Origin: a virus
Taxonomy: Duplodnaviria > Heunggongvirae > Uroviricota > Caudoviricetes
Reading direction: 5' to 3' (one strand)
Length of the DNA stretch: 6,579 nt
Virus record (IMG/VR): IMGVR_UViG_2541047595_000016
Both the position numbers and the translations under genes were made by a program. The notes beneath the pieces are model-generated. The model did not search any database. It saw only the letters and a program-made list of their open reading frames with translations, and had not been told where the DNA came from. Of the stretch, positions 1 to 6,579 are shown piece by piece (the stretch's first letter is position 1; the number at the start of each line of letters is the position of its first letter).

Positions 1-36
1 ACGGACTTCGGGGGAAAAACGAGTATTTTTAGTCAT
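1..36 (-). CDS. IS3-family transposase OrfA, N-terminal 12 codons only (5' partial in window)
   Basis: Reverse complement of 1-36 = ATG ACT AAA AAT ACT CGT TTT TCC CCC GAA GTC CGT = MTKNTRFSPEVR; AGG/GAGG-containing leader upstream (GAGAAAGAGGTAAACAGG). Too short for the ORF track. Recognised from memory as the IS629/IS1203 OrfA start. Confidence 0.7.
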   Translation of the reverse strand, partial: MTKNTRFSPEVR

Positions 37-90
37 CCTGTTTACCTCTTTCTCAGGAAGTTTAGTCTCCAGGATTCCCGGGGCGGTTCA
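1..90 (-). mobile_element. Left end of an IS3-family insertion sequence (IS629/IS1203-like), partial; continues beyond the window start
   Basis: Minus strand 90->37 reads TGAACCGCCCCGGGAATCCTGGAGACTAAACTTCCTGAGAAAGAGGTAAACAGG, a 5'-TG... terminal inverted repeat that I recognise from memory as the IS629 end. It is followed by ATG at 36-34 opening MTKNTRFSPEVR, the IS629-type OrfA N-terminus. The element ends at TGA/TCA at position 90. The other end is outside the window, so target-site duplication cannot be checked. Confidence 0.75.
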
Positions 91-189
91 AACGTCTTGG
101 GCTACAAACCATGGTTGGCCATCGATAATGATGGAACGGATAGGGTTAACAGATTCAAATTTGAAGATGGCAGTTTGAGCATTAGCCAT
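91..189 (-). pseudogene. Bro-N-type phage antirepressor, N-terminal 33 codons, truncated by the IS insertion
   Basis: Minus-strand ATG at 189-187 preceded by GGAGA (204-200) with an 8-nt spacer. Translation MANAQTAIFKFESVNPIRSIIIDGQPWFVAQDV matches the Bro-N/antirepressor N-terminal pattern (F.F......R...IDG.PWFVA.DV). The next in-frame codon is the TGA formed by the IS terminus at 90-88. Confidence 0.65.
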
Positions 190-207
190 GGTGGTTATCT
201 CCACTTA

Positions 208-221
208 GTGATTTTAATCAC
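208..221. promoter_or_regulatory. 14-bp palindrome GTGATTTTAATCAC just upstream of the antirepressor RBS; candidate operator overlapping a -10-like TAAAAT
   Basis: Seen in sequence: 208-221 gtgattttaatcac has half-sites GTGATT/AATCAC. On the minus strand it contains TAAAAT about 13 nt upstream of the GGAGA Shine-Dalgarno. Regulatory role is inference only. Confidence 0.3.
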
Positions 222-345
222 CACCGCAACGCCAATTACTGGTGGTGAACTGGACAAGGTTGGCGTACCGGCCTAAGTGGTACCGGCGTCCTTTCGGACC
301 CCTGCCCAGCCCACCATAATTCGGATATAGCTGTGCTTAACGCAT

Positions 346-368
346 AAAAAAACCACGTCTGGCGTGGT
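346..368 (-). terminator. Rho-independent terminator for the minus-strand small gene
   Basis: Minus strand reads A-CCACG-CCAGA-CGTGG-TTTTTTT (stem 353-357/363-367, 5-nt loop, 7-T tract from 352-346). The run is on the correct side for minus-strand transcription arriving from the 505-777 gene. Confidence 0.6.
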
Positions 369-504
369 ATGCGCCACTTAGTAACCCGGGACGCCAATCC
401 CGGCACTGGATTTTGCCAGTGCCCGATTACTATGGCACAAGAGGAGTGCGATGTAAATTTACTGCAAAGGTAAATATAAGCACTCCTATTGGTAATTTCA
501 AATC

Positions 505-762
505 TTATCTGGTTTGTTTTCGTAATTGTTCGGCACAATAGTCGAGATGTGTTTGCAGATCCTGCATAGACATCTGTGAGCTGGTGACGTAGTTAATCAG
601 TGCAGTCAGTTCGGCAAGTGGGCCATCGACATTAAATCCATCCTTATCGAGATCCCGGAGTAATTTCATCAAGTGCGATCCCTCCACCAGTGACCTGACG
701 CCTCCCGGCGTGTGAATCCTTTCGGTAAATCCCTCTTCCAGTGGATAGTGATACTGCTGCAT
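505..762 (-). CDS. Small hypothetical protein (85 aa from ATG 762; 90 aa if ATG 777), apparently LexA/SOS-controlled; function unknown, possibly a small antirepressor-type regulator
   Basis: ORF-track ORF 505..777. The second ATG (762-760) has a well-spaced GGAGAAG Shine-Dalgarno; the first ATG (777-775) has none. A near-consensus LexA box lies at 785-800 immediately upstream. Stop TAA at 507-505, then a terminator at 346-368. I do not recognise the protein family by eye. Confidence 0.6.
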   Translation of the reverse strand: MQQYHYPLEEGFTERIHTPGGVRSLVEGSHLMKLLRDLDKDGFNVDGPLAELTALINYVTSSQMSMQDLQTHLDYCAEQLRKQTR

Positions 763-784
763 CTTAATCTTCTCCATGCAATAA

Positions 785-800
785 CTGTATATTTATACAG
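785..800. promoter_or_regulatory. LexA (SOS) box CTGT-N8-ACAG
   Basis: 783-802 = AACTGTATATTTATACAGTA versus the E. coli consensus TACTGTATATATATACAGTA (2 mismatches in 20; CTGT and ACAG intact with 8-bp AT-rich spacer). It contains -10-like hexamers on both strands (TATAAA on minus, TATATT on plus). It lies 7 bp from ATG 777 and 22 bp from ATG 762 of the minus-strand gene. Confidence 0.85.
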
Positions 801-958
801 TAGCAAATAATTTGTTTGCTATCCAGCACGTTTTGCAAATTACCTGAAAGGTAATATCTATTCATATTCACAGTCTTTCTATCCATATATGGTTTTTTGG
901 GTAATAGAATAACCAGATATGCGGCGCAACGGGTGCTGCGACTATCTGGAGATTTAAC

Positions 959-3421
959 ATGACGGTCTCAACCGAAGTTGACCACAACGAATACACAGGT
1001 AACGGCGTTACGACATCATTTCCGTATACCTTCCGTATTTTCAAAAAATCCGACCTGGTTGTTCAGGTGTCTGACCTTAACGGTAACGTTACAAAACTAG
1101 TGCTGGATGCTGGTTATACGGTAACAGGGGCGGGAACTTATAGTGGCGGTGCAGTGGTTCTTCCGTCGCCGCTTGCTGCTGGCTGGCGAATCACGATAGA
1201 GCGTGTGCTTGATGTGGTGCAGGAGACTGATCTTCGCAATCAGGGAAAATTTTTCCCCGAAGTTCATGAGGATGCATTTGACTACCTGACGATGCTGATC
1301 CAGCGATGTTTTGGGTGGTTCAGACGTGCATTGATGAAACCATCTTTGCTTGCAAAATATTACGATGCAAAGCAAAACAGAATATCTAACCTTGCCGATC
1401 CATCACTTGAGCAGGACGCTGTAAATAATCGCTCAATGCGTAATTATGTCGATGCTGCAATCGCCGGAGTTATTGGTGGTTTTGGTTGGTTTATTCAGTA
1501 TGGTTCTGGAGCGGTATACAGAACGTTCCAGGATAAGATGCGTGATGGTGTCAGCATTAAGGATTTTGGAGCTCAAAATGGAATCTTAAATGATAACAAG
1601 GATGCTTTTACAAAATCATTACATTCGTTTAGCAGTGTTTTTGTTCCGGAAGGGGTATTCAATACATCTTTAGTTTCTCTTTCACGTTGTGGCTTGTACG
1701 GAACAGGTGGGGGAACGATAAAACAGTATGACAGAGATGGTAATCATCTGGTTTTTAACATGCCCGATGGTGGCATGCTTAGTACGCTAACAATTATGGG
1801 AAATAAATCAGATGATAGTGTGCAGGGACACCAGGTGTCATTTTCAGGTGGCCATGATGTATCGGTTAAAAATATCAGATTTACAAATACGCGAGGACCA
1901 GGATTTAGCTTGATCGCTTATCCGGATAATGGTATTCCGTCAGGTTACATTGTTAGAGATATAAGAGGAGAGTATTTAGGGTTCGCAAATAATAAAAAAG
2001 CAGGTTGTGTGCTTTTTGATTCATCGCAAAATACGCTAATTGATGGTGTGATAGCCAGAAATTATCCTCAGTTTGGTGCAGTGGAACTTAAAACAGCAGC
2101 AAAATATAACATTGTCAGCAATGTTATTGGTGAAGAGTGTCAGCACGTTGTTTACAATGGAACTGAGACGGAAACTGCCCCAACGAATAATATCATTAGC
2201 AGTGTAATGGCTAACAACCCAAAATACGCCGCAGTAGTTGTTGGCAAGGGGACTGGTAACCTGATTTCGGATGTGCTGGTTGATTACTCTGAATCGGACG
2301 CAAAGCAGGCGCACGGCGTCACCGTTCAGGGAAATAATAATATTGCCAGTAATATTCTAATGACTGGGTGTGATGGGAAAAATGAATCAGGAGATCTGCA
2401 GACATCTACAACCATTCGTTTCTTAGATGCTGCACGCAGTAATTATGCGTCAATATTCCCCATGTATAGTTCTTCCGGCGTGGTTACCTTCGAGGAAGGG
2501 TGTATCAGGAACTTTGTTGAAATTAAACATCCGGGTGACAGAAATAATATTCTGAGTTCTGCATCAGCGGTGACTGGTATTTCCAGTATAGACGGCACTA
2601 CAAATAGCAATGTTGTTCACGTCCCTGCGCTTGGTCAGTACGTTGGGACTATGTCAGGGCGTTTTGAATGGTGGGTTAAATATTTTAACCTTGCTAACCA
2701 GACGCTTGTTTCTGCAGATAAATTCAGAATGCTTGCTGAAGGCGATGTATCTCTGGCTGTGGGAGGCGGTATAAGTTCGCAATTGAAATTATTCAATAGT
2801 GATAATACTAAAGGCACTATGTCGCTAATAAATGGAAATATTCGAATATCTACTGGAAATTCAGAATATATACAGTTTTCTGATTCAGCCATGACACCAT
2901 CGACAACGAATACTTATTCTCTTGGGTTGGCTGGTCGTGCATGGTCGGGGGGATTTACCCAGTCAGCGTTTACGGTGCTGTCCGATGCGCGTTTCAAGAC
3001 TGCTCCAGAGGTTATTGATGAGAAAATACTGGACGCATGGGAAAGAGTGGAATGGGTTTCATACCAGTACCTTGACAGGATCGAAGTGAAAGGTAAAGAC
3101 GGAGCAAGATGGCACTTTGGTGCAGTTGCGCAGCATGTTATCAGTGTATTTCAGAATGAAGGCATAGATGTGTCACGACTGGCATTTATCTGTTATGACA
3201 AGTGGAATGAGACCCCGGCAGAATACAGGGATGTGACGGAAGAAGAGCATTCTGCAGGAGTTTACCCACTTATACAGACAAAGGTTCTGGTACGCGAAGC
3301 CGTCGAGGCTGGTGAATGTTACGGTATCCGTTATGAAGAGGCTCTGATTCTGGAATCTGCGATGATGAGACGCAGGGTTAAAAAGCTGGAAGAGCAAGTT
3401 TTGCAATTAACAGGGAATTGA
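959..3421 (+). CDS. Phage tailspike/tail-fibre receptor-binding protein (820 aa): N-terminal virion-anchor domain, central right-handed beta-helix (probable polysaccharide depolymerase), C-terminal intramolecular chaperone/peptidase S74-type self-cleaving domain
   Basis: ATG 959 with GGAGA at 948-952 and a 6-nt spacer. Residues 1-120 (YTGNGVTTSFPYTFRIF...LVLDAGYTVT...) resemble the N-terminal anchor domain of T7 gp17-like fibres. Residues about 290-640 are Asn/Gly/Ser/Thr/Val-rich with asparagine-ladder runs typical of beta-helix tailspikes (NNIISSVMANN, QGNNNIASNILMTGCDG). Residues 675-680 SDARFK fit the S-D-x-R-x-K autoproteolysis motif (Ser nucleophile, Lys at +5) of endosialidase-type C-terminal chaperone domains. 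Stop TGA 3419-3421. Confidence 0.9.
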   Translation: MTVSTEVDHNEYTGNGVTTSFPYTFRIFKKSDLVVQVSDLNGNVTKLVLDAGYTVTGAGTYSGGAVVLPSPLAAGWRITIERVLDVVQETDLRNQGKFFPEVHEDAFDYLTMLIQRCFGWFRRALMKPSLLAKYYDAKQNRISNLADPSLEQDAVNNRSMRNYVDAAIAGVIGGFGWFIQYGSGAVYRTFQDKMRDGVSIKDFGAQNGILNDNKDAFTKSLHSFSSVFVPEGVFNTSLVSLSRCGLYGTGGGTIKQYDRDGNHLVFNMPDGGMLSTLTIMGNKSDDSVQGHQVSFSGGHDVSVKNIRFTNTRGPGFSLIAYPDNGIPSGYIVRDIRGEYLGFANNKKAGCVLFDSSQNTLIDGVIARNYPQFGAVELKTAAKYNIVSNVIGEECQHVVYNGTETETAPTNNIISSVMANNPKYAAVVVGKGTGNLISDVLVDYSESDAKQAHGVTVQGNNNIASNILMTGCDGKNESGDLQTSTTIRFLDAARSNYASIFPMYSSSGVVTFEEGCIRNFVEIKHPGDRNNILSSASAVTGISSIDGTTNSNVVHVPALGQYVGTMSGRFEWWVKYFNLANQTLVSADKFRMLAEGDVSLAVGGGISSQLKLFNSDNTKGTMSLINGNIRISTGNSEYIQFSDSAMTPSTTNTYSLGLAGRAWSGGFTQSAFTVLSDARFKTAPEVIDEKILDAWERVEWVSYQYLDRIEVKGKDGARWHFGAVAQHVISVFQNEGIDVSRLAFICYDKWNETPAEYRDVTEEEHSAGVYPLIQTKVLVREAVEAGECYGIRYEEALILESAMMRRRVKKLEEQVLQLTGN

Positions 3422-3493
3422 ACCGTAAATGGTGTGTTGTTGCGCGGTATACTTTTCCTGAAGCAGGGTGTTTGCAAATAAACGGGTTTCGTT

Positions 3494-3898
3494 ATGTCAT
3501 TCCAACTAACCAATGAAACTTCAAATCAGTGGCTTAGTGTTAGTTCTCTTGCTGCGGTTATTGCAGGTGTCCCTCCGGAGGTTGCTTTGGGGGCTTTGGC
3601 TGGGGCGGTAATTTTTGTTACCTCTGCGGTAGAGTATCCTATTCGTCGTCGTGTACTCTTGTCGATGCTTAGCTTTCTCTGCGGCCTTCTTTTTTATAAA
3701 CCAGCAGCATCAATTCTTATCGGCATAGCCAGCCTGATCCCTACCATCACGCAGGACTCTTTTGAAAAAGGGATTGTTTTCTCAGCTGGCGCATTCGTGT
3801 CAGCAATTGTTGCTGTGCGTATTGGTATATGGCTCTATCACCGTTCCGATAATCCACGCGAGTTAATTCCGGGGAGAAAAGACGATGGTAACGCATGA
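3494..3898 (+). CDS. Small multi-pass membrane protein (134 aa), first gene of the lysis cassette; holin or antiholin candidate
   Basis: Three to four hydrophobic segments (about 30-46, 54-68, 70-85, 93-115) and a charged C-terminal tail ([19 protein letters not shown]). Its stop overlaps the next gene's start (ATGGTAACGCATGA). Weak Shine-Dalgarno at ATG 3494; an internal TTG at 3587 has a better GGAGG site. Function is from context only. Confidence 0.55.
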   Translation: MSFQLTNETSNQWLSVSSLAAVIAGVPPEVALGALAGAVIFVTSAVEYPIRRRVLLSMLSFLCGLLFYKPAASILIGIASLIPTITQDSFEKGIVFSAGAFVSAIVAVRIGIWLYHRSDNPRELIPGRKDDGNA

Positions 3899-4193
3899 GT
3901 TTTTTTTGCTTATCACCAATGCAGTTATTTGTACTGGCATAGCAATTCGCGTTGTCACATTCCGGCGTAACGGATCTCAACATCGAAGATTGGGAGGGTG
4001 GCTTGCTTATTTCCTTATTGTTGCTGCGGCAAGTATTCCTGTTCGTGTCGTCTATGCAATCTGGTTACGCACGCCAATGGCTGTGGATTTATCTGAGGTC
4101 ATTATCAACGCTGTCATGCTGGCTGCGGTTATTAAAACGCGCGGTAACGTCGTTCAAATTTTTAAAGTATCGAGGTCTAAACATGGAGATTAA
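3885..4193 (+). CDS. Small three-TM membrane protein (102 aa), putative holin
   Basis: ATG 3885 preceded by GGGGAGA with a 7-nt spacer. Three hydrophobic helices (about 6-24, 36-61, 67-83) and a basic C-terminus ([19 protein letters not shown]). Its 3' end overlaps the endolysin start by 11 nt, implying translational coupling. Confidence 0.6.
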
Positions 4194-4812
4194 ACAATTC
4201 CAGCGAGCTGCTGGTATCAGCGAGGCACTGGCCGCACGCTGGATCTCGCATATAACTTCTGCGATGAAAGAGTTTGGTATCAGCAAACCCGAAGATCAGG
4301 CAATGTTTATTGCTCAGGTCGGGCATGAGTCTGGTGGCTTCAACCGGTTGCAGGAAAATTTCAACTACAGCGTCACCGGACTGGCTAACTTCGTTCGGGC
4401 TGGGCGTCTCACTCAGGGGCAGGCTAATGCACTGGGGCGCCGTGCTGGTGAACCACCATTGCCACTTGAGCGCCAGCGCGCGATCGCAAATCTGGTATAC
4501 AGCAAACGCATGGGGAACAATGCCCCTGGTGATGGCTGGAATTACCGAGGGCGCGGACTTATCCAGATTACCGGTTTGAATAACTATCGTGATTGCGGAA
4601 ACGGTCTGAAGGTTGACCTGCTGGAGAGCCCTGAACTGCTGGCGCAGGACGAATATGCGGCTCGTAGCGCGGCGTGGTTCTTCGCCAGCAAAGGATGCAT
4701 GAAGTATACCGGCGATATTGCACGTGTAACTCTGATTATCAATGGTGGCCGGAACGGCATCGACGACCGGCGAGCGCGGTACATCACTGCCAGTAAGGTG
4801 CTGGCGGTATGA
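4183..4812 (+). CDS. Endolysin, glycoside hydrolase family 19 (chitinase-class-I-like lysozyme), 209 aa
   Basis: ATG 4183 with GAGG at 4172-4175. GH19 motifs VGHESGGF and [15 protein letters not shown]. The two putative catalytic Glu fall at residues 49 and 58 by my count, which matches my memory of the numbering reported for the Salmonella phage SPN1S GH19 endolysin. N-terminus is not hydrophobic, so no SAR signal. The ORF-track start at 3952 is a TTG extension through the upstream gene and is not used. Confidence 0.9.
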
Positions 4813-5291
4813 TCTGGGCATTCGTAAAAGCATACTGGAAACAGTTGCTTATCGTGGCAGTGCTTGCTGTTCTGGTCATATCAGGAGTGGTTGCCTGGAA
4901 TATACACGGCAGTCGCCAGTACGATGCCGGGTATGCGCAGGCGGAAGAAGACCGCAAAGCCGAAGAAGACAAAGTTCGTCAGTACTACGAACAGGAGAAA
5001 GTGGCCAATGAACGTGAAGCTCAGCAGAGGATCGACCAGGCGCGCAATGATGCTCTTGATGCTGCCGCTCGCGCTGGCCGGTTGCAGCAACAACTCTTTG
5101 CCATCCGTGAGCAGCTCAGGCAGTATAACGCCATTGTCGGCGCTGGGACGTCAGCCGCAGACACCGGAGTTTTGCTTGCCGACGTGCTCAGCAAATCTCT
5201 CGAGAGAAACAGACAACTGGCAGAGTATGCTGACCGGGCAGCCGAAGCCGGAAGAGTCTGCGAAAAACAGTACGACACACTGACCAGATAG
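4809..5291 (+). CDS. Rz-type i-spanin (inner-membrane spanin subunit), 160 aa
   Basis: ATG overlaps the endolysin stop (ATGA at 4809-4812). N-terminal TM helix ([18 protein letters not shown]) followed by a long charged, Ala/Gln/Glu/Arg-rich predicted coiled-coil periplasmic domain with a single C-terminal Cys. Position right after the endolysin. Confidence 0.85.
5047..5283 (+). CDS. Rz1-type o-spanin (outer-membrane lipoprotein), 78 aa, wholly embedded in the +1 frame of the i-spanin gene
   Basis: ATGATG at 5047-5052 opens [13 protein letters not shown] with lipobox LAGC and Ser at +2 (outer-membrane sorting). The mature part is Pro/Ser-rich and short with Cys residues, typical of o-spanins. 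The ORF-track ORF 4864..5283 is the same frame over-extended upstream. Confidence 0.8.
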   Translation: MMLLMLPLALAGCSNNSLPSVSSSGSITPLSALGRQPQTPEFCLPTCSANLSRETDNWQSMLTGQPKPEESAKNSTTH

Positions 5292-5372
5292 CATGGCATT
5301 TTTCATGGTACTGATTTCCGGTGACGGTATATAAAACGGTACGAGAAAAATTCATCTTTGGAAAAATGTTAT

Positions 5373-5409
5373 CACTCAATTAGTTATGGTGTCCGTAAAT
5401 AATTGAGTG
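5373..5409. repeat. Perfect 10-bp inverted repeat (CACTCAATTA ... TAATTGAGTG) with 17-bp spacer, spanning the proposed phage-host junction
   Basis: Seen in sequence: 5373-5382 cactcaatta and 5400-5409 taattgagtg are exact reverse complements. The right arm overlaps the ATTGAGTGG codons of the GuaA-like C-terminus. Confidence 0.5.
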
Positions 5410-5416
5410 GGAATGA
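5402..5416 (+). other. guaA: Orphan 3' terminus of guaA (GMP synthase) coding sequence, ...IEWE-stop; candidate attR core region
   Basis: ATT GAG TGG GAA TGA = I-E-W-E-stop. GMP synthase ends ...PPATIEWE (from memory). The frame upstream is closed by TAA at 5396-5398 and no GuaA body is present; phage lysis genes are there instead. Fits a prophage integrated at the 3' end of guaA. Confidence 0.5.
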
Positions 5417-5440
5417 TTTGACCCTGCACTATGAATGAAC

Positions 5441-5470
5441 AAAACCCTCTGTTACTACAGAGGGTTTTTT
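5441..5470. terminator. Bidirectional Rho-independent terminator between the convergent lysis operon/guaA remnant and the minus-strand host genes
   Basis: AAAA-ACCCTCTGT-tact-ACAGAGGGT-TTTTTT: stem 5443-5452 pairs with 5457-5466 (GC-rich core of 7 bp), 4-nt loop, T-tract 5465-5470 on plus strand; a weaker T-rich run follows on the minus strand. Confidence 0.75.
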
Positions 5471-5508
5471 ATCTTCAAGAATTATAGGATTGAAGTTACT
5501 AACATCGA

Positions 5509-6048
5509 TTAATTAAACCAGCTGTCCGATTTGTTCTCTTCTGCTTTGCCCACGCTTTTCATCAGATCGCGACCGCCTTCAGTCATATTTCTGTTGGCGT
5601 CAGCTTCAGATTGCACCACATCGGTTTGCGCAGCTTTGTGCTTCAGTTCCTGATCGATAAATTCGTTTTCTCGCTTAACGCGGGCTTCTTCTTTCGCCAG
5701 CGCCAGTTTTTGTTTCTGAATCTCTAAGCTGCGTAGCTCATCTTCATAACTTTGATCGCGTTTTTTGTCCGCAGAGGCTTCGGCGTCCAGTTTATCCTGA
5801 CGAGCTTTCTTATTTGCCGCTGCCGTTGCCGCTCTTTTGTTAGCGGCGGCCTGGGCATTTGCGCGACGTTGCTTCTCTTGCTGGATTTCCCTGTTGCGCT
5901 CCGCGACCCATTCGTCATGCTGCCTTTGCTCTTCATTTTTACCTTGCTGTTCCGCTTCTGCGACAGCAGAGAGTTGATCCTGCAATGATGAGGCGATAGC
6001 CGGATAGCTTAAGGAGGCTAAGATGGCGCAAAGAAAAACTTTCTTCAT
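5509..6048 (-). CDS. yfgI: Secreted (Sec signal peptide) Lys/Arg/Glu/Gln-rich coiled-coil periplasmic protein, 179 aa; host gene, tentatively YfgI
   Basis: ATG 6048-6046 with AGGAGGAG Shine-Dalgarno. Signal peptide MKKVFLCAILASLSYPAIA then an A-x-A cleavage site. The mature protein is highly charged and low-complexity (QRRANAQAAANKRAATAAANKKARQDK...). The name rests on my memory that E. coli yfgI encodes a 179-aa protein and lies beside guaA with yfgH; the sequence itself was not verified. Confidence 0.55.
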   Translation of the reverse strand: MKKVFLCAILASLSYPAIASSLQDQLSAVAEAEQQGKNEEQRQHDEWVAERNREIQQEKQRRANAQAAANKRAATAAANKKARQDKLDAEASADKKRDQSYEDELRSLEIQKQKLALAKEEARVKRENEFIDQELKHKAAQTDVVQSEADANRNMTEGGRDLMKSVGKAEENKSDSWFN

Positions 6049-6063
6049 GACTCCTCCTGATTA

Positions 6064-6579
6064 TTAGCTCTTTTCAGGACATTTGGTATTTGGCTGAATA
6101 CGCGTTTCGTTATACGTCGTGGTAATAACAACGGCTAAACCTGTCGTAAACTGGCACTCTTTACCCACCTGGGTAGAGGTATACACTTTGGTGCCTTCCT
6201 TATAGGTTAAAGAAACACCTTCCACTAAGGTTTTATCATTCACCATAGAACCCGCTGCCGCGCCTACAGCTCCGCCGCCAACTGCACCTGCCGTCGTTCC
6301 GGAATTGCTGCCAGACCCGACGTTGTGGCCGATAACACCGCCAGCGACTGCGCCAATAAGCGCGCCGAAGGCTTGTGCGTTCCGTTTATTTTGGGAGTTG
6401 TCTACGGCAACTTTTGCGGGAAGAATGGAAATAATATTAACGGTTTTAGTTTCTTGTTTGGTATTCAGTTGATCGGTTTGATAAACATCGGCAGCATGAT
6501 CGTCAGCATTTGACTGGCATCCTGCCAGAGTGAATGACGCTAACATTGCCACAGGCAGAAGACATTTTTTAAATTTCAT
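6064..6579 (-). CDS. yfgH: Glycine-zipper outer-membrane lipoprotein (SlyB/Pcp-like), 171 aa as read; host gene, tentatively YfgH
   Basis: ATG at 6579-6577, exactly at the window edge (RBS not visible; the true start could be one or more codons further upstream). Signal peptide with lipobox LAGC and Gln at +2. Gly/Ala-rich glycine-zipper segment (FGALIGAVAGGVIGHNVGSG...AGAVGGGAVGAAAGS). Lies 15 bp upstream of the 5509-6048 gene, so probably an operon. The name is from memory of the K-12 yfgH-yfgI-guaA neighbourhood; unverified. Confidence 0.5.
   Translation of the reverse strand: MKFKKCLLPVAMLASFTLAGCQSNADDHAADVYQTDQLNTKQETKTVNIISILPAKVAVDNSQNKRNAQAFGALIGAVAGGVIGHNVGSGSNSGTTAGAVGGGAVGAAAGSMVNDKTLVEGVSLTYKEGTKVYTSTQVGKECQFTTGLAVVITTTYNETRIQPNTKCPEKS

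Follow-up and report, generated by a model that had tools for sequence, protein, structure and literature searches.

A LexA (SOS) box is present in the 6,579-nt stretch of viral DNA analysed here (the window), in the spacer between a minus-strand gene, ant, and a plus-strand tailspike gene that is followed by a lysis cassette. Its position raises the question of whether DNA damage would switch on the tailspike and lysis genes directly, through LexA, or by way of the divergent gene. A preliminary description put forward direct control as a possibility, with plus-strand transcription starting at the box and the phage's own cascade bypassed. If LexA acted directly, a prophage remnant could lyse its host upon DNA damage without any phage regulator, and lysis of this kind, if true, would be relevant to toxin/DNA release and to prophage domestication. 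We consider it probable instead that positions 778–958 form a conserved ant–tailspike control region, in which two separate promoters stand back to back with a repressor operator between them and SOS acts by relay. The earlier view of this interval as a divergent control region, set between a minus-strand gene and the tailspike, is upheld by our analysis.

Prophage context of the locus

At guaA, a prophage of the genus Uetakevirus (epsilon15/phiV10/SPC32H-like) is integrated, and the window covers its right end. Positions 89–6579 match E. coli chromosomes at 97–99%, and the genes annotated in these chromosomes comprise a tail fiber, two holins, a GH19 endolysin, a DUF2514 spanin, yfgI and yfgH. 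The parts covering ant with the tailspike N-terminus, and the lysis genes, match the Uetakevirus phages phiV10, TL-2011b, ZX5, epsilon15, SPN1S and SPC32H. In strain 4/1-1, an intact relative sits between guaA and yfgI in the order int, early genes, rep, replication, terminase, head and tail genes, BRO-N (minus strand), a small gene (minus strand), tailspike and lysis. More generally, intact relatives run from structural genes through ant (minus strand), tailspike and lysis to att, and they encode rep; the left edge of the window is an IS. The att core (Table 1) has been published for ZX5, phiV10 and epsilon15 (PMC9782041).

Bases 1–88 are the end of this multicopy IS; they match 23,119 places in 3,614 genomes, with MTKNTRFSPEVR encoded by the minus strand of the first 36. 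The IS cuts the BRO-N gene at position 88, leaving 33 codons, and a search for the resulting junction in complete E. coli genomes and in viral contigs gave no match. This is the only damage visible within the window. The prophage had been regarded as degraded, a view that is not borne out, since Uetakevirus prophages normally end in their lysis genes and this arrangement is no sign of decay.

The minus-strand gene of the spacer encodes an ortholog of a structurally characterized antirepressor. Its product aligns with PDB 5D50 chain E, ‘Anti-repressor protein’ (E=1.6e-47; residues 2–84 aligned to 3–85; about 89% identity), and also matches phrog_450 (E=1e-47), while the position of the gene equals that of SPC32H_020 (ant), epsilon15 gp19 and phiV10 gp24. 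An in-frame ATG further upstream, at 777, was proposed by the ORF finder and discarded: a 1-nt indel places it out of frame in most relatives, so the real start is the ATG at 762.

Table 1. Coordinates of the genes and of the observed or predicted control elements in the window
Feature	Position (nt)	Strand	Details
ant, 85-aa antirepressor, ortholog of SPC32H Ant	505–762	-	start ATG 762–760; GGAG 775–772
Box candidate promoter	-35 at 764–769; -10 at 788–793	+	TTAATC, 18-nt spacer, TATATT; PWM 8.3
LexA box CTGTATATTTATACAG	785–800 (20-mer 783–802)	.	CTGT-N8-ACAG palindrome, AT-rich centre
Pant, predicted ant promoter	797–825	-	-35 TGGATA 825–820, 17-nt spacer, extended -10 TGnTACTGT 805–797
Rep (phage immunity repressor) operator ATTACCTGAAAGGTAAT, putative	839–855	.	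ATTACC-N5-GGTAAT, 17-bp inverted repeat; motif match
P_tsp, predicted tailspike promoter module	881–910	+	conservation; predicted start near 917
GC-rich hairpin in tailspike 5' leader	913–949	+	predicted dG -20.9 kcal/mol, z = -5.4
Tailspike / tail fiber	959–3421	+	C-terminal Peptidase_S74 chaperone domain
Diverged palindrome copy AACCGTAAATGGTGT	3421–3435	+	16.2 bits; -10 region of relatives not retained
Holin-like protein	3494–3898	+	lysis cassette (3494–5291)
Holin	3885–4193	+	lysis cassette
GH19 endolysin	4183–4812	+	lysis cassette
Rz	4809–5291	+	lysis cassette
Rz1, embedded in other frame	within 4864–5283	+	lysis cassette
attR core ATTGAGTGGGAATGATT	5402–5418	.	duplicate of guaA 3' end; phage matches stop at 5418/5419
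Host terminator between guaA and yfgI	5441–5468	+	12-bp stem and T run

Conserved elements between ant and the tailspike

Intergenic spacers between ant and the tailspike were collected from 88 loci in E. coli, Salmonella, Citrobacter, Erwinia, Pseudocitrobacter and Scandinavium, yielding 65 distinct sequences, of which one with an insertion in the box was left out (64 retained). Addition of three spacers from Klebsiella/Enterobacter phages brought the set to 67 distinct spacers. An alignment of nine representatives contained no indels across 769–916 and revealed a series of conserved blocks: the GGAG/ATG region of ant, both arms of the LexA box, a ‘CA’ at 804–805, CTATCCAGCA at 819–828, TGC plus the operator at 835–856, AT(C/T)CATAT at 880–888, GGTAATAGAAT at 900–910, the GC-rich leader hairpin, and CTGGAGA with the tailspike ATG. 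Divergence in the Klebsiella phages affects the left half of the spacer, where one arm of the box reads ACAT, yet ATTCATATATGGTTTGATGGGTAATAGAAT is almost unchanged. A search of 700–1000 against Rfam gave no match. Two further inverted repeats, at 801–821 and at 824–836/926–938, occur in the E. coli clade only, and the first varies at 803 without a compensating change; both were accordingly taken as chance.

The motif CTGT-N8-ACAG occurs once in the window, at the box, against 0.09 occurrences expected by chance. The E. coli LexA consensus over 20 positions is TACTGTATATATATACAGTA, and the 20-mer at 783–802, AACTGTATATTTATACAGTA, agrees with this consensus at 18 of 20 positions. Judged by its sequence, the element is a near-consensus E. 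coli-type LexA site. Both arms are intact in 65 of the 67 distinct spacers, ACAT in one arm being confined to two Klebsiella spacers. Comparison of the SPC32N and SPC32H records over 17.9 kb revealed two differing positions, one of which is a CTGT to CTTT change in the orthologous box. Kim and Ryu reportedly described the two phages in 2013 as two nucleotides apart, with one of the differences in a LexA site that overlaps the ant promoter.

The element TGGATA-17-TGnTACTGT on the minus strand is a candidate extended -10 promoter of ant (Pant). Its -10 coincides with the upstream arm of the LexA box, which fits the reported overlap of the LexA site with the ant promoter. Eight spacers from six genera agree in both hexamers, in the TG and in the 17-nt distance between the hexamers, with variation confined to the sequence of that stretch, and the promoter scores 7.5 in 63 of 64 spacers and 4.0 in one. 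According to a review citing Kim and Ryu 2013 (PMC7380047), self-cleavage of LexA leads to production of the antirepressor, which inhibits the repressor by protein–protein contact; the Ant tetramer breaks up the DNA-binding Rep tetramer (PMC9638917, summarising Kim et al. 2016).

The rival to this arrangement is a plus-strand promoter overlapping the box, through which LexA would exert direct repression on a transcript that has a long leader and runs into the tailspike and lysis genes, in the style of a colicin operon. TTAATC-18-TATATT is indeed the best plus-strand sigma-70 candidate in positions 700–1000 of the window (8.3), has a mean of 8.3 over all 64 spacers, reaches 10.5 in the E. coli clade and is followed by no terminator before the tailspike. 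Its score, however, drops to 0.7–5.2 in relatives from Salmonella, Citrobacter, Erwinia, Pseudocitrobacter and Scandinavium, a decay that reflects a -35 lying within the ant start region, which is not kept, and variation of the inner box bases (TATAAA, TATTTA). The box is palindromic and does carry -10-like hexamers on both strands, as had been observed (TATATT at 788–793, plus strand; TACTGT at 802–797, minus strand), but these follow by construction from an AT-rich palindromic LexA site and would be expected anyway. A promoter at this position would furthermore compete with Pant for the same DNA, while a second, fully conserved promoter-like module lies downstream of the box. The box overlaps the -10 of the conserved minus-strand footprint, whereas the only plus-strand element it overlaps is the non-conserved candidate. 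With an invariant Pant at the box and the conserved plus-strand element about 100 nt downstream, plus-strand transcription starting at the box is not supported, and we regard this reading as improbable.

For the plus strand, a consensus promoter scan of 778–958 found nothing, and our own PWM returned five candidates of 6.6–8.3 bits, which is within the coding-region background. The downstream module, P_tsp, scores 7.1 in the window against 8.3 for the box candidate; each matches 8 of 12 consensus positions by our own count, and both lie under the threshold of the consensus scan. Single-sequence scores being alike, only conservation told the candidates apart. On this basis, the tailspike most likely has its own conserved promoter, with a predicted start near 917. 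Its hexamers, TCCATA-17-TAGAAT (882–910), comprise a -35-like TCCATA (882–887) and a -10 TAGAAT (905–910); the former lies in a palindrome, ATCCATATATGGTT (881–894), and the latter closes the block GGTAATAGAAT that follows the palindrome and opens with a Rep half-site, GGTAAT (900–905).

Conservation of this module extends from E. coli through Klebsiella and Enterobacter, GGTAATA(G/A)A(A/C)T being present in 67 of 67 distinct spacers. The module begins exactly 25 nt past the operator, and this gap is maintained in 66 of the 67 spacers even though its 25 nt are the least conserved stretch. PWM scores range from 5.8 to 10.9 across all 64 spacers scored and are highest in distant relatives, which carry TTCATA-17-TAGAAT or TAAACT. 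The preliminary description had noted no other obvious promoter or terminator between the box and the tailspike. As regards terminators this stands, no terminator-like site being present in 778–958; as regards promoters it does not, in view of the conserved promoter-like module at 881–910, and the diverged lysis-cassette promoter motif at 3421–3435 also counts against it. The tailspike ATG at 959 and the 158 nt separating it from the box were confirmed. Relative to the predicted start near 917, the centre of the LexA box lies near -124, which is too distant for occlusion.

Downstream of the predicted start, the 3' arm of the leader hairpin abuts and overlaps the GGAG ribosome-binding site of the tailspike at 948–951. 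Lacking a U tract, the hairpin is not an intrinsic terminator. Each relative has a hairpin with a GCGC-type core, and the covariation signal is weak, with one pair showing a compensatory change and an unfavourable covariation term. The hairpin is thus predicted to be stable, and is not proven as a conserved structure.

Operator, palindrome family and the lysis genes

The inverted repeat ATTACC-N5-GGTAAT had been placed at about 840–856 and suggested as a further operator. The repeat is real, one base away from that position, and the suggestion appears to be correct, as it agrees with the operator consensus of the phage repressor. The match is perfect and unique in the window (0.03 expected), and its motif and position equal those of the ‘repressor / lysogeny’ protein_bind feature of epsilon15 (19895–19911), the same motif being found at sites beside rep. 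Allowing at most one mismatch, we identified 11 such sites in epsilon15, 13 in SPC32N and 10 in a 45-kb E. coli prophage locus, clustered around rep, against a chance expectation that we estimate at roughly 0.1. Rep most likely binds at 839–855. The site is upstream of both predicted promoters, about -57 from the start of Pant and about -70 from that of P_tsp. The epsilon15 record annotates an IHF site after the operator; inspection of 856–880 in the window by eye disclosed no convincing IHF match.

The palindrome in P_tsp recurs elsewhere in these genomes. On the plus strand of epsilon15 and SPC32N, YCATATRWGG is confined to the upstream regions of the head operon, the tailspike and the lysis cassette. 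A survey of 80 lysis-cassette loci (41 distinct upstream regions), using a mismatch-tolerant search, located a palindrome with the consensus AACCATATATGGTTT 70–75 nt before the holin start in nearly all cassettes, whatever lies upstream. The notion that the lysis palindrome depends on an upstream minus-strand gene was dropped in light of this result. A PWM was then trained solely on the lysis-cassette upstream regions, and its top match in the window was the tailspike site, with 25.7 bits against 13.7 for the best shuffle. In three genomes, the top matches include the tailspike, lysis, head, ruvC-like and gp39/gp40 sites, and the PWM also picks a site beyond the terminator downstream of the cro-like gene. 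All of these sites score above the best shuffle in epsilon15, whereas the weaker ones fall below it in SPC32N and in the E. coli prophage; the lysis site of the latter is diverged (16.2 bits) and below the best shuffle of that genome. The distance from the palindrome to the best -10 differs between the tailspike and head promoters and the lysis promoters. Taken together, the predicted tailspike promoter is one member of a phage-specific promoter family.

In the units that begin after the cro-like gene and in the ruvC-like, head, tailspike and lysis units, the palindrome AACCATAWATGGTT would sit just upstream of the -10, where a -35 is expected. We tentatively propose that this palindrome of about 14 bp, common to Uetakevirus plus-strand units, may be the recognition site of a phage-encoded transcription factor and, at divergent junctions such as ant/tailspike, be paired with a Rep operator at a set spacing. 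Candidates for such a factor would be a PerC-family protein encoded in the leftward early operon or a Cys-rich protein, phrog_536, whose gene immediately precedes the terminase genes. If this reading is true, the tailspike and lysis genes would be doubly locked, by a repressor and by the requirement for an activator. Neither a description of the motif nor usable promoter or transcript-start data for phiV10- or epsilon15-type phages were found in the searchable literature, a scope outside which the primary epsilon15 and SPC32H papers lie.

How the operator and the palindrome divide the control of P_tsp can be read in two ways. Many lysis-cassette promoters carry the palindrome with no Rep operator nearby and yet must stay silent in lysogens, from which we infer that these promoters need a phage-made factor. 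Carried further, this would leave the operator at 839–855 serving Pant, as a second lock or modulator, and not P_tsp, which would be silent in lysogens only for want of the palindrome-binding activator. The distribution of operators ahead of lysis cassettes, with one mismatch allowed, points the same way: they occur at 4 of the 15 loci whose upstream gene is on the minus strand, against 4 of the 63 loci whose upstream gene is on the plus strand. Against it stand the 25-nt distance from operator to palindrome, kept in 66 of 67 spacers, and the invariant GGTAAT half-site adjoining the P_tsp -10, two features which suggest that Rep would act on the tailspike promoter too; in addition, an operator centred about 57 nt upstream of the Pant start is not in a classic repressing position. 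We consider an operator serving Pant alone less likely than not; action of Rep on the tailspike promoter and the need for a phage-made factor may both hold. In ZX5, overproduction of Rep lowered holin and endolysin mRNA by >99.9% (PMC9782041), which is compatible with action of Rep on the tailspike promoter as well as with the need for a phage-made factor. The fixed 25-nt distance of P_tsp from the operator and the palindrome it has in common with head and lysis promoters are among the reasons why we find no support for LexA acting directly on the tailspike and lysis genes, outside the phage cascade.

Whether the lysis genes belong to the same transcription unit was assessed from the layout downstream. 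The 72 nt between the tailspike stop and the holin-like gene contain no terminator and start with the diverged palindrome copy. In phiV10, SPC32H and epsilon15, the tailspike and the lysis cassette are not adjacent: opposite-strand genes for O-antigen modification lie between them, and the cassettes carry their own operator-like site and palindrome. In Klebsiella phage BUCT711, only 8 nt lie between the tailspike stop and the holin start, which leaves no room for a separate promoter, and the lysis genes of some relatives must therefore use a promoter upstream of the tailspike. In the window, co-transcription of tailspike and lysis genes from the predicted tailspike promoter is likely, and a weak internal lysis promoter is possible. 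The block had been described as ending at a terminator. The genes are indeed co-directional up to 5291 and a strong terminator follows at 5441–5468; because it lies beyond the attR core and outside phage homology, however, this terminator is host DNA, at which the lysis transcription unit has come to end.

A different origin of the transcript, namely that the spacer has no working plus-strand promoter and that anti-terminated read-through arrives from a far-upstream late promoter, antisense across BRO-N, the small RNAs and ant, is in our judgement very unlikely. Its appeal lies in a 112-aa Cys-rich ‘transcriptional regulator’ (phrog_536) that is encoded just before the terminase genes and followed by a terminator, a position like that of a lambda Q-type late regulator. 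Yet the palindrome module recurs at the start of every plus-strand unit that comes after an opposite-strand insert, the epsilon15 and phiV10 annotations place terminators after gp18, and read-through would leave the strict conservation and fixed spacing of 881–910 unexplained.

Proposed relay and comparison with known switches

The circuit that we propose therefore has two arms. Pant would drive Ant, and with its -10 and start inside the LexA box it would be blocked by LexA until DNA is damaged. Rep would bind the operator between the two promoters. P_tsp would drive the tailspike and most likely the lysis genes too, there being no terminator before the holins in the window; in a lysogen, either Rep at the neighbouring operator or the need for a palindrome-recognising phage factor, or both, would keep P_tsp silent. 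DNA damage would then act through LexA cleavage, Ant production and Rep inactivation on the phage promoters, and so on tailspike and lysis. For LexA control of ant and for inactivation of Rep by Ant, the model draws on the SPC32H work (PMC7380047, PMC9638917). The tailspike and lysis genes are thus likely to be inducible by DNA damage through this relay of LexA, Ant and Rep, and not directly. As the relay passes through Ant and Rep, inducibility would depend on the rest of the prophage, or on a related prophage, supplying Rep.

The switch of Salmonella phage SPC32H, which consists of a LexA-controlled ant whose product inactivates Rep (Ant structure, PDB 5D50), is matched in several respects. 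Both phages belong to the same genus, ant is divergent from the tailspike in both, the Ant proteins are about 89% identical, the LexA box is equally far from ant, and a Rep-type operator is in the same place. The window differs from SPC32H in that its copy is an E. coli guaA prophage, with an extra small-RNA/BRO-N antirepressor module beside ant, and in that O-antigen modification genes are absent between tailspike and lysis. The LexA/Ant/Rep switch is already published for SPC32H, so the locus adds one more instance of a system that was known before. In E. coli Uetakevirus records, ant is usually labelled ‘hypothetical’ and the antirepressor label is given to the BRO-N protein; in these records, ant should be annotated as a LexA-controlled antirepressor.

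The epsilon15 record (NC_004775.2) likewise annotates a ‘repressor, lysogeny’ ATTACC-N5-GGTAAT site between gp19, the ant ortholog, and the tail fiber gene gp20, and further such sites before gp1 and gp3, beside the repressor gene and before the Holliday-junction resolvase gene. It annotates no LexA box, antirepressor role for gp19, promoters or palindrome. The common palindrome offers a concrete handle on late-gene control in Uetakevirus.

Kim and Ryu are said to have found Ant structurally distinct from antirepressors of the Tum/Gifsy/Fels-2 type. Coliphage 186 Tum and the Gifsy/Fels-2 antirepressors resemble the present system in that induction proceeds via a LexA-repressed antirepressor and not via self-cleavage of the repressor (PMC7380047). 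Judged by title and abstract, the source shows no sequence relationship between these proteins and the Ant family.

Direct control of the kind first suggested for this locus would resemble a colicin operon. In colicin operons, LexA boxes lie on the promoter of an operon ending in a lysis gene, and LexA thereby controls toxin and lysis directly. Here, no LexA box was found on a conserved promoter reading into the lysis genes, the sole overlapping plus-strand candidate being unconserved outside the E. coli clade; the box overlaps instead the predicted promoter of ant, on the opposite strand, and is about 100 nt distant from the conserved plus-strand element.

Insertion in the LexA box of a relative and a further site of the palindrome

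In one related prophage (L020, IMG/VR contig 2563366870_000004), an insertion of ~1.9 kb that includes coding sequence lies within the LexA box, flanked by CTGTATGTTTAT on one side and a repeat of ATGTTTATACAG on the other, and separates ant from its predicted promoter. The palindrome found in the inferred tailspike promoter module recurs in epsilon15 (L090) and in a further locus, L092, immediately past the terminator 3′ of a cro-like gene and ~71 nt upstream of the next gene, with an operator-like site ahead of it. Occurrence of this motif thus extends beyond the late genes.

Tailspike leader and end of the lysis unit

The tailspike leader contains a stable hairpin in which CCAGAUA pairs with UAUCUGG, directly adjoining the GGAG ribosome-binding site. 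This hairpin, which could stabilize the mRNA or dampen translation, is found in Escherichia coli and Salmonella relatives and is weaker in others. At the opposite end of the unit, the attR core is a duplicate of the 3′ end of guaA, stop codon included; in the integrated prophage, the lysis unit hence stops at the host terminator, which sits between guaA and yfgI.

Antirepressor genes and small-RNA matches

Within window positions 1-189, the BRO-N antirepressor-like gene is cut off after 33 codons by the end of a multicopy IS, which we take to be IS3-family-like and in which window positions 1-36 encode MTKNTRFSPEVR on the minus strand. The IS/BRO-N junction was absent from all complete E. coli genomes of the collection searched and from the viral contigs searched. 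In phage vB_EcoP_ZX5, the BRO-N protein (ORF4) was taken as the antirepressor, and LexA is not mentioned (PMC9782041). The ZX5 ortholog of the SPC32H-type ant is annotated as 'hypothetical protein'.

Between ant and the BRO-N gene, the minus strand matches the Rfam models for isrK and C4 RNAs, accompanied by promoter-like and terminator-like sites.

Coordinates of features in the window and in related loci
Feature	Position	Strand	Rfam score (gathering score)
IS end	1-88		
C4 antisense RNA	238-321	-	66 bits (45)
isrK	346-422	-	67.7 bits (50)
Terminator-like site	368..352	-	
C4 targets a1/b1	383-435	-	44.1 bits (46.7; slightly below)
Promoter-like site	501..473	-	
Tailspike leader hairpin	913-949	+	
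attR core through host terminator	5402-5468		
Palindrome, L090	33749-33762		
Palindrome, L092	11046-11059	reverse complement	

Unlike epsilon15 and SPC32H, both without an RNA module of this isrK/C4 type, the window appears to carry at 238-435 a second, RNA-controlled antirepressor module of the P1/P7 immI or Gifsy-1 IsrK type, arranged in tandem with the LexA-controlled ant.
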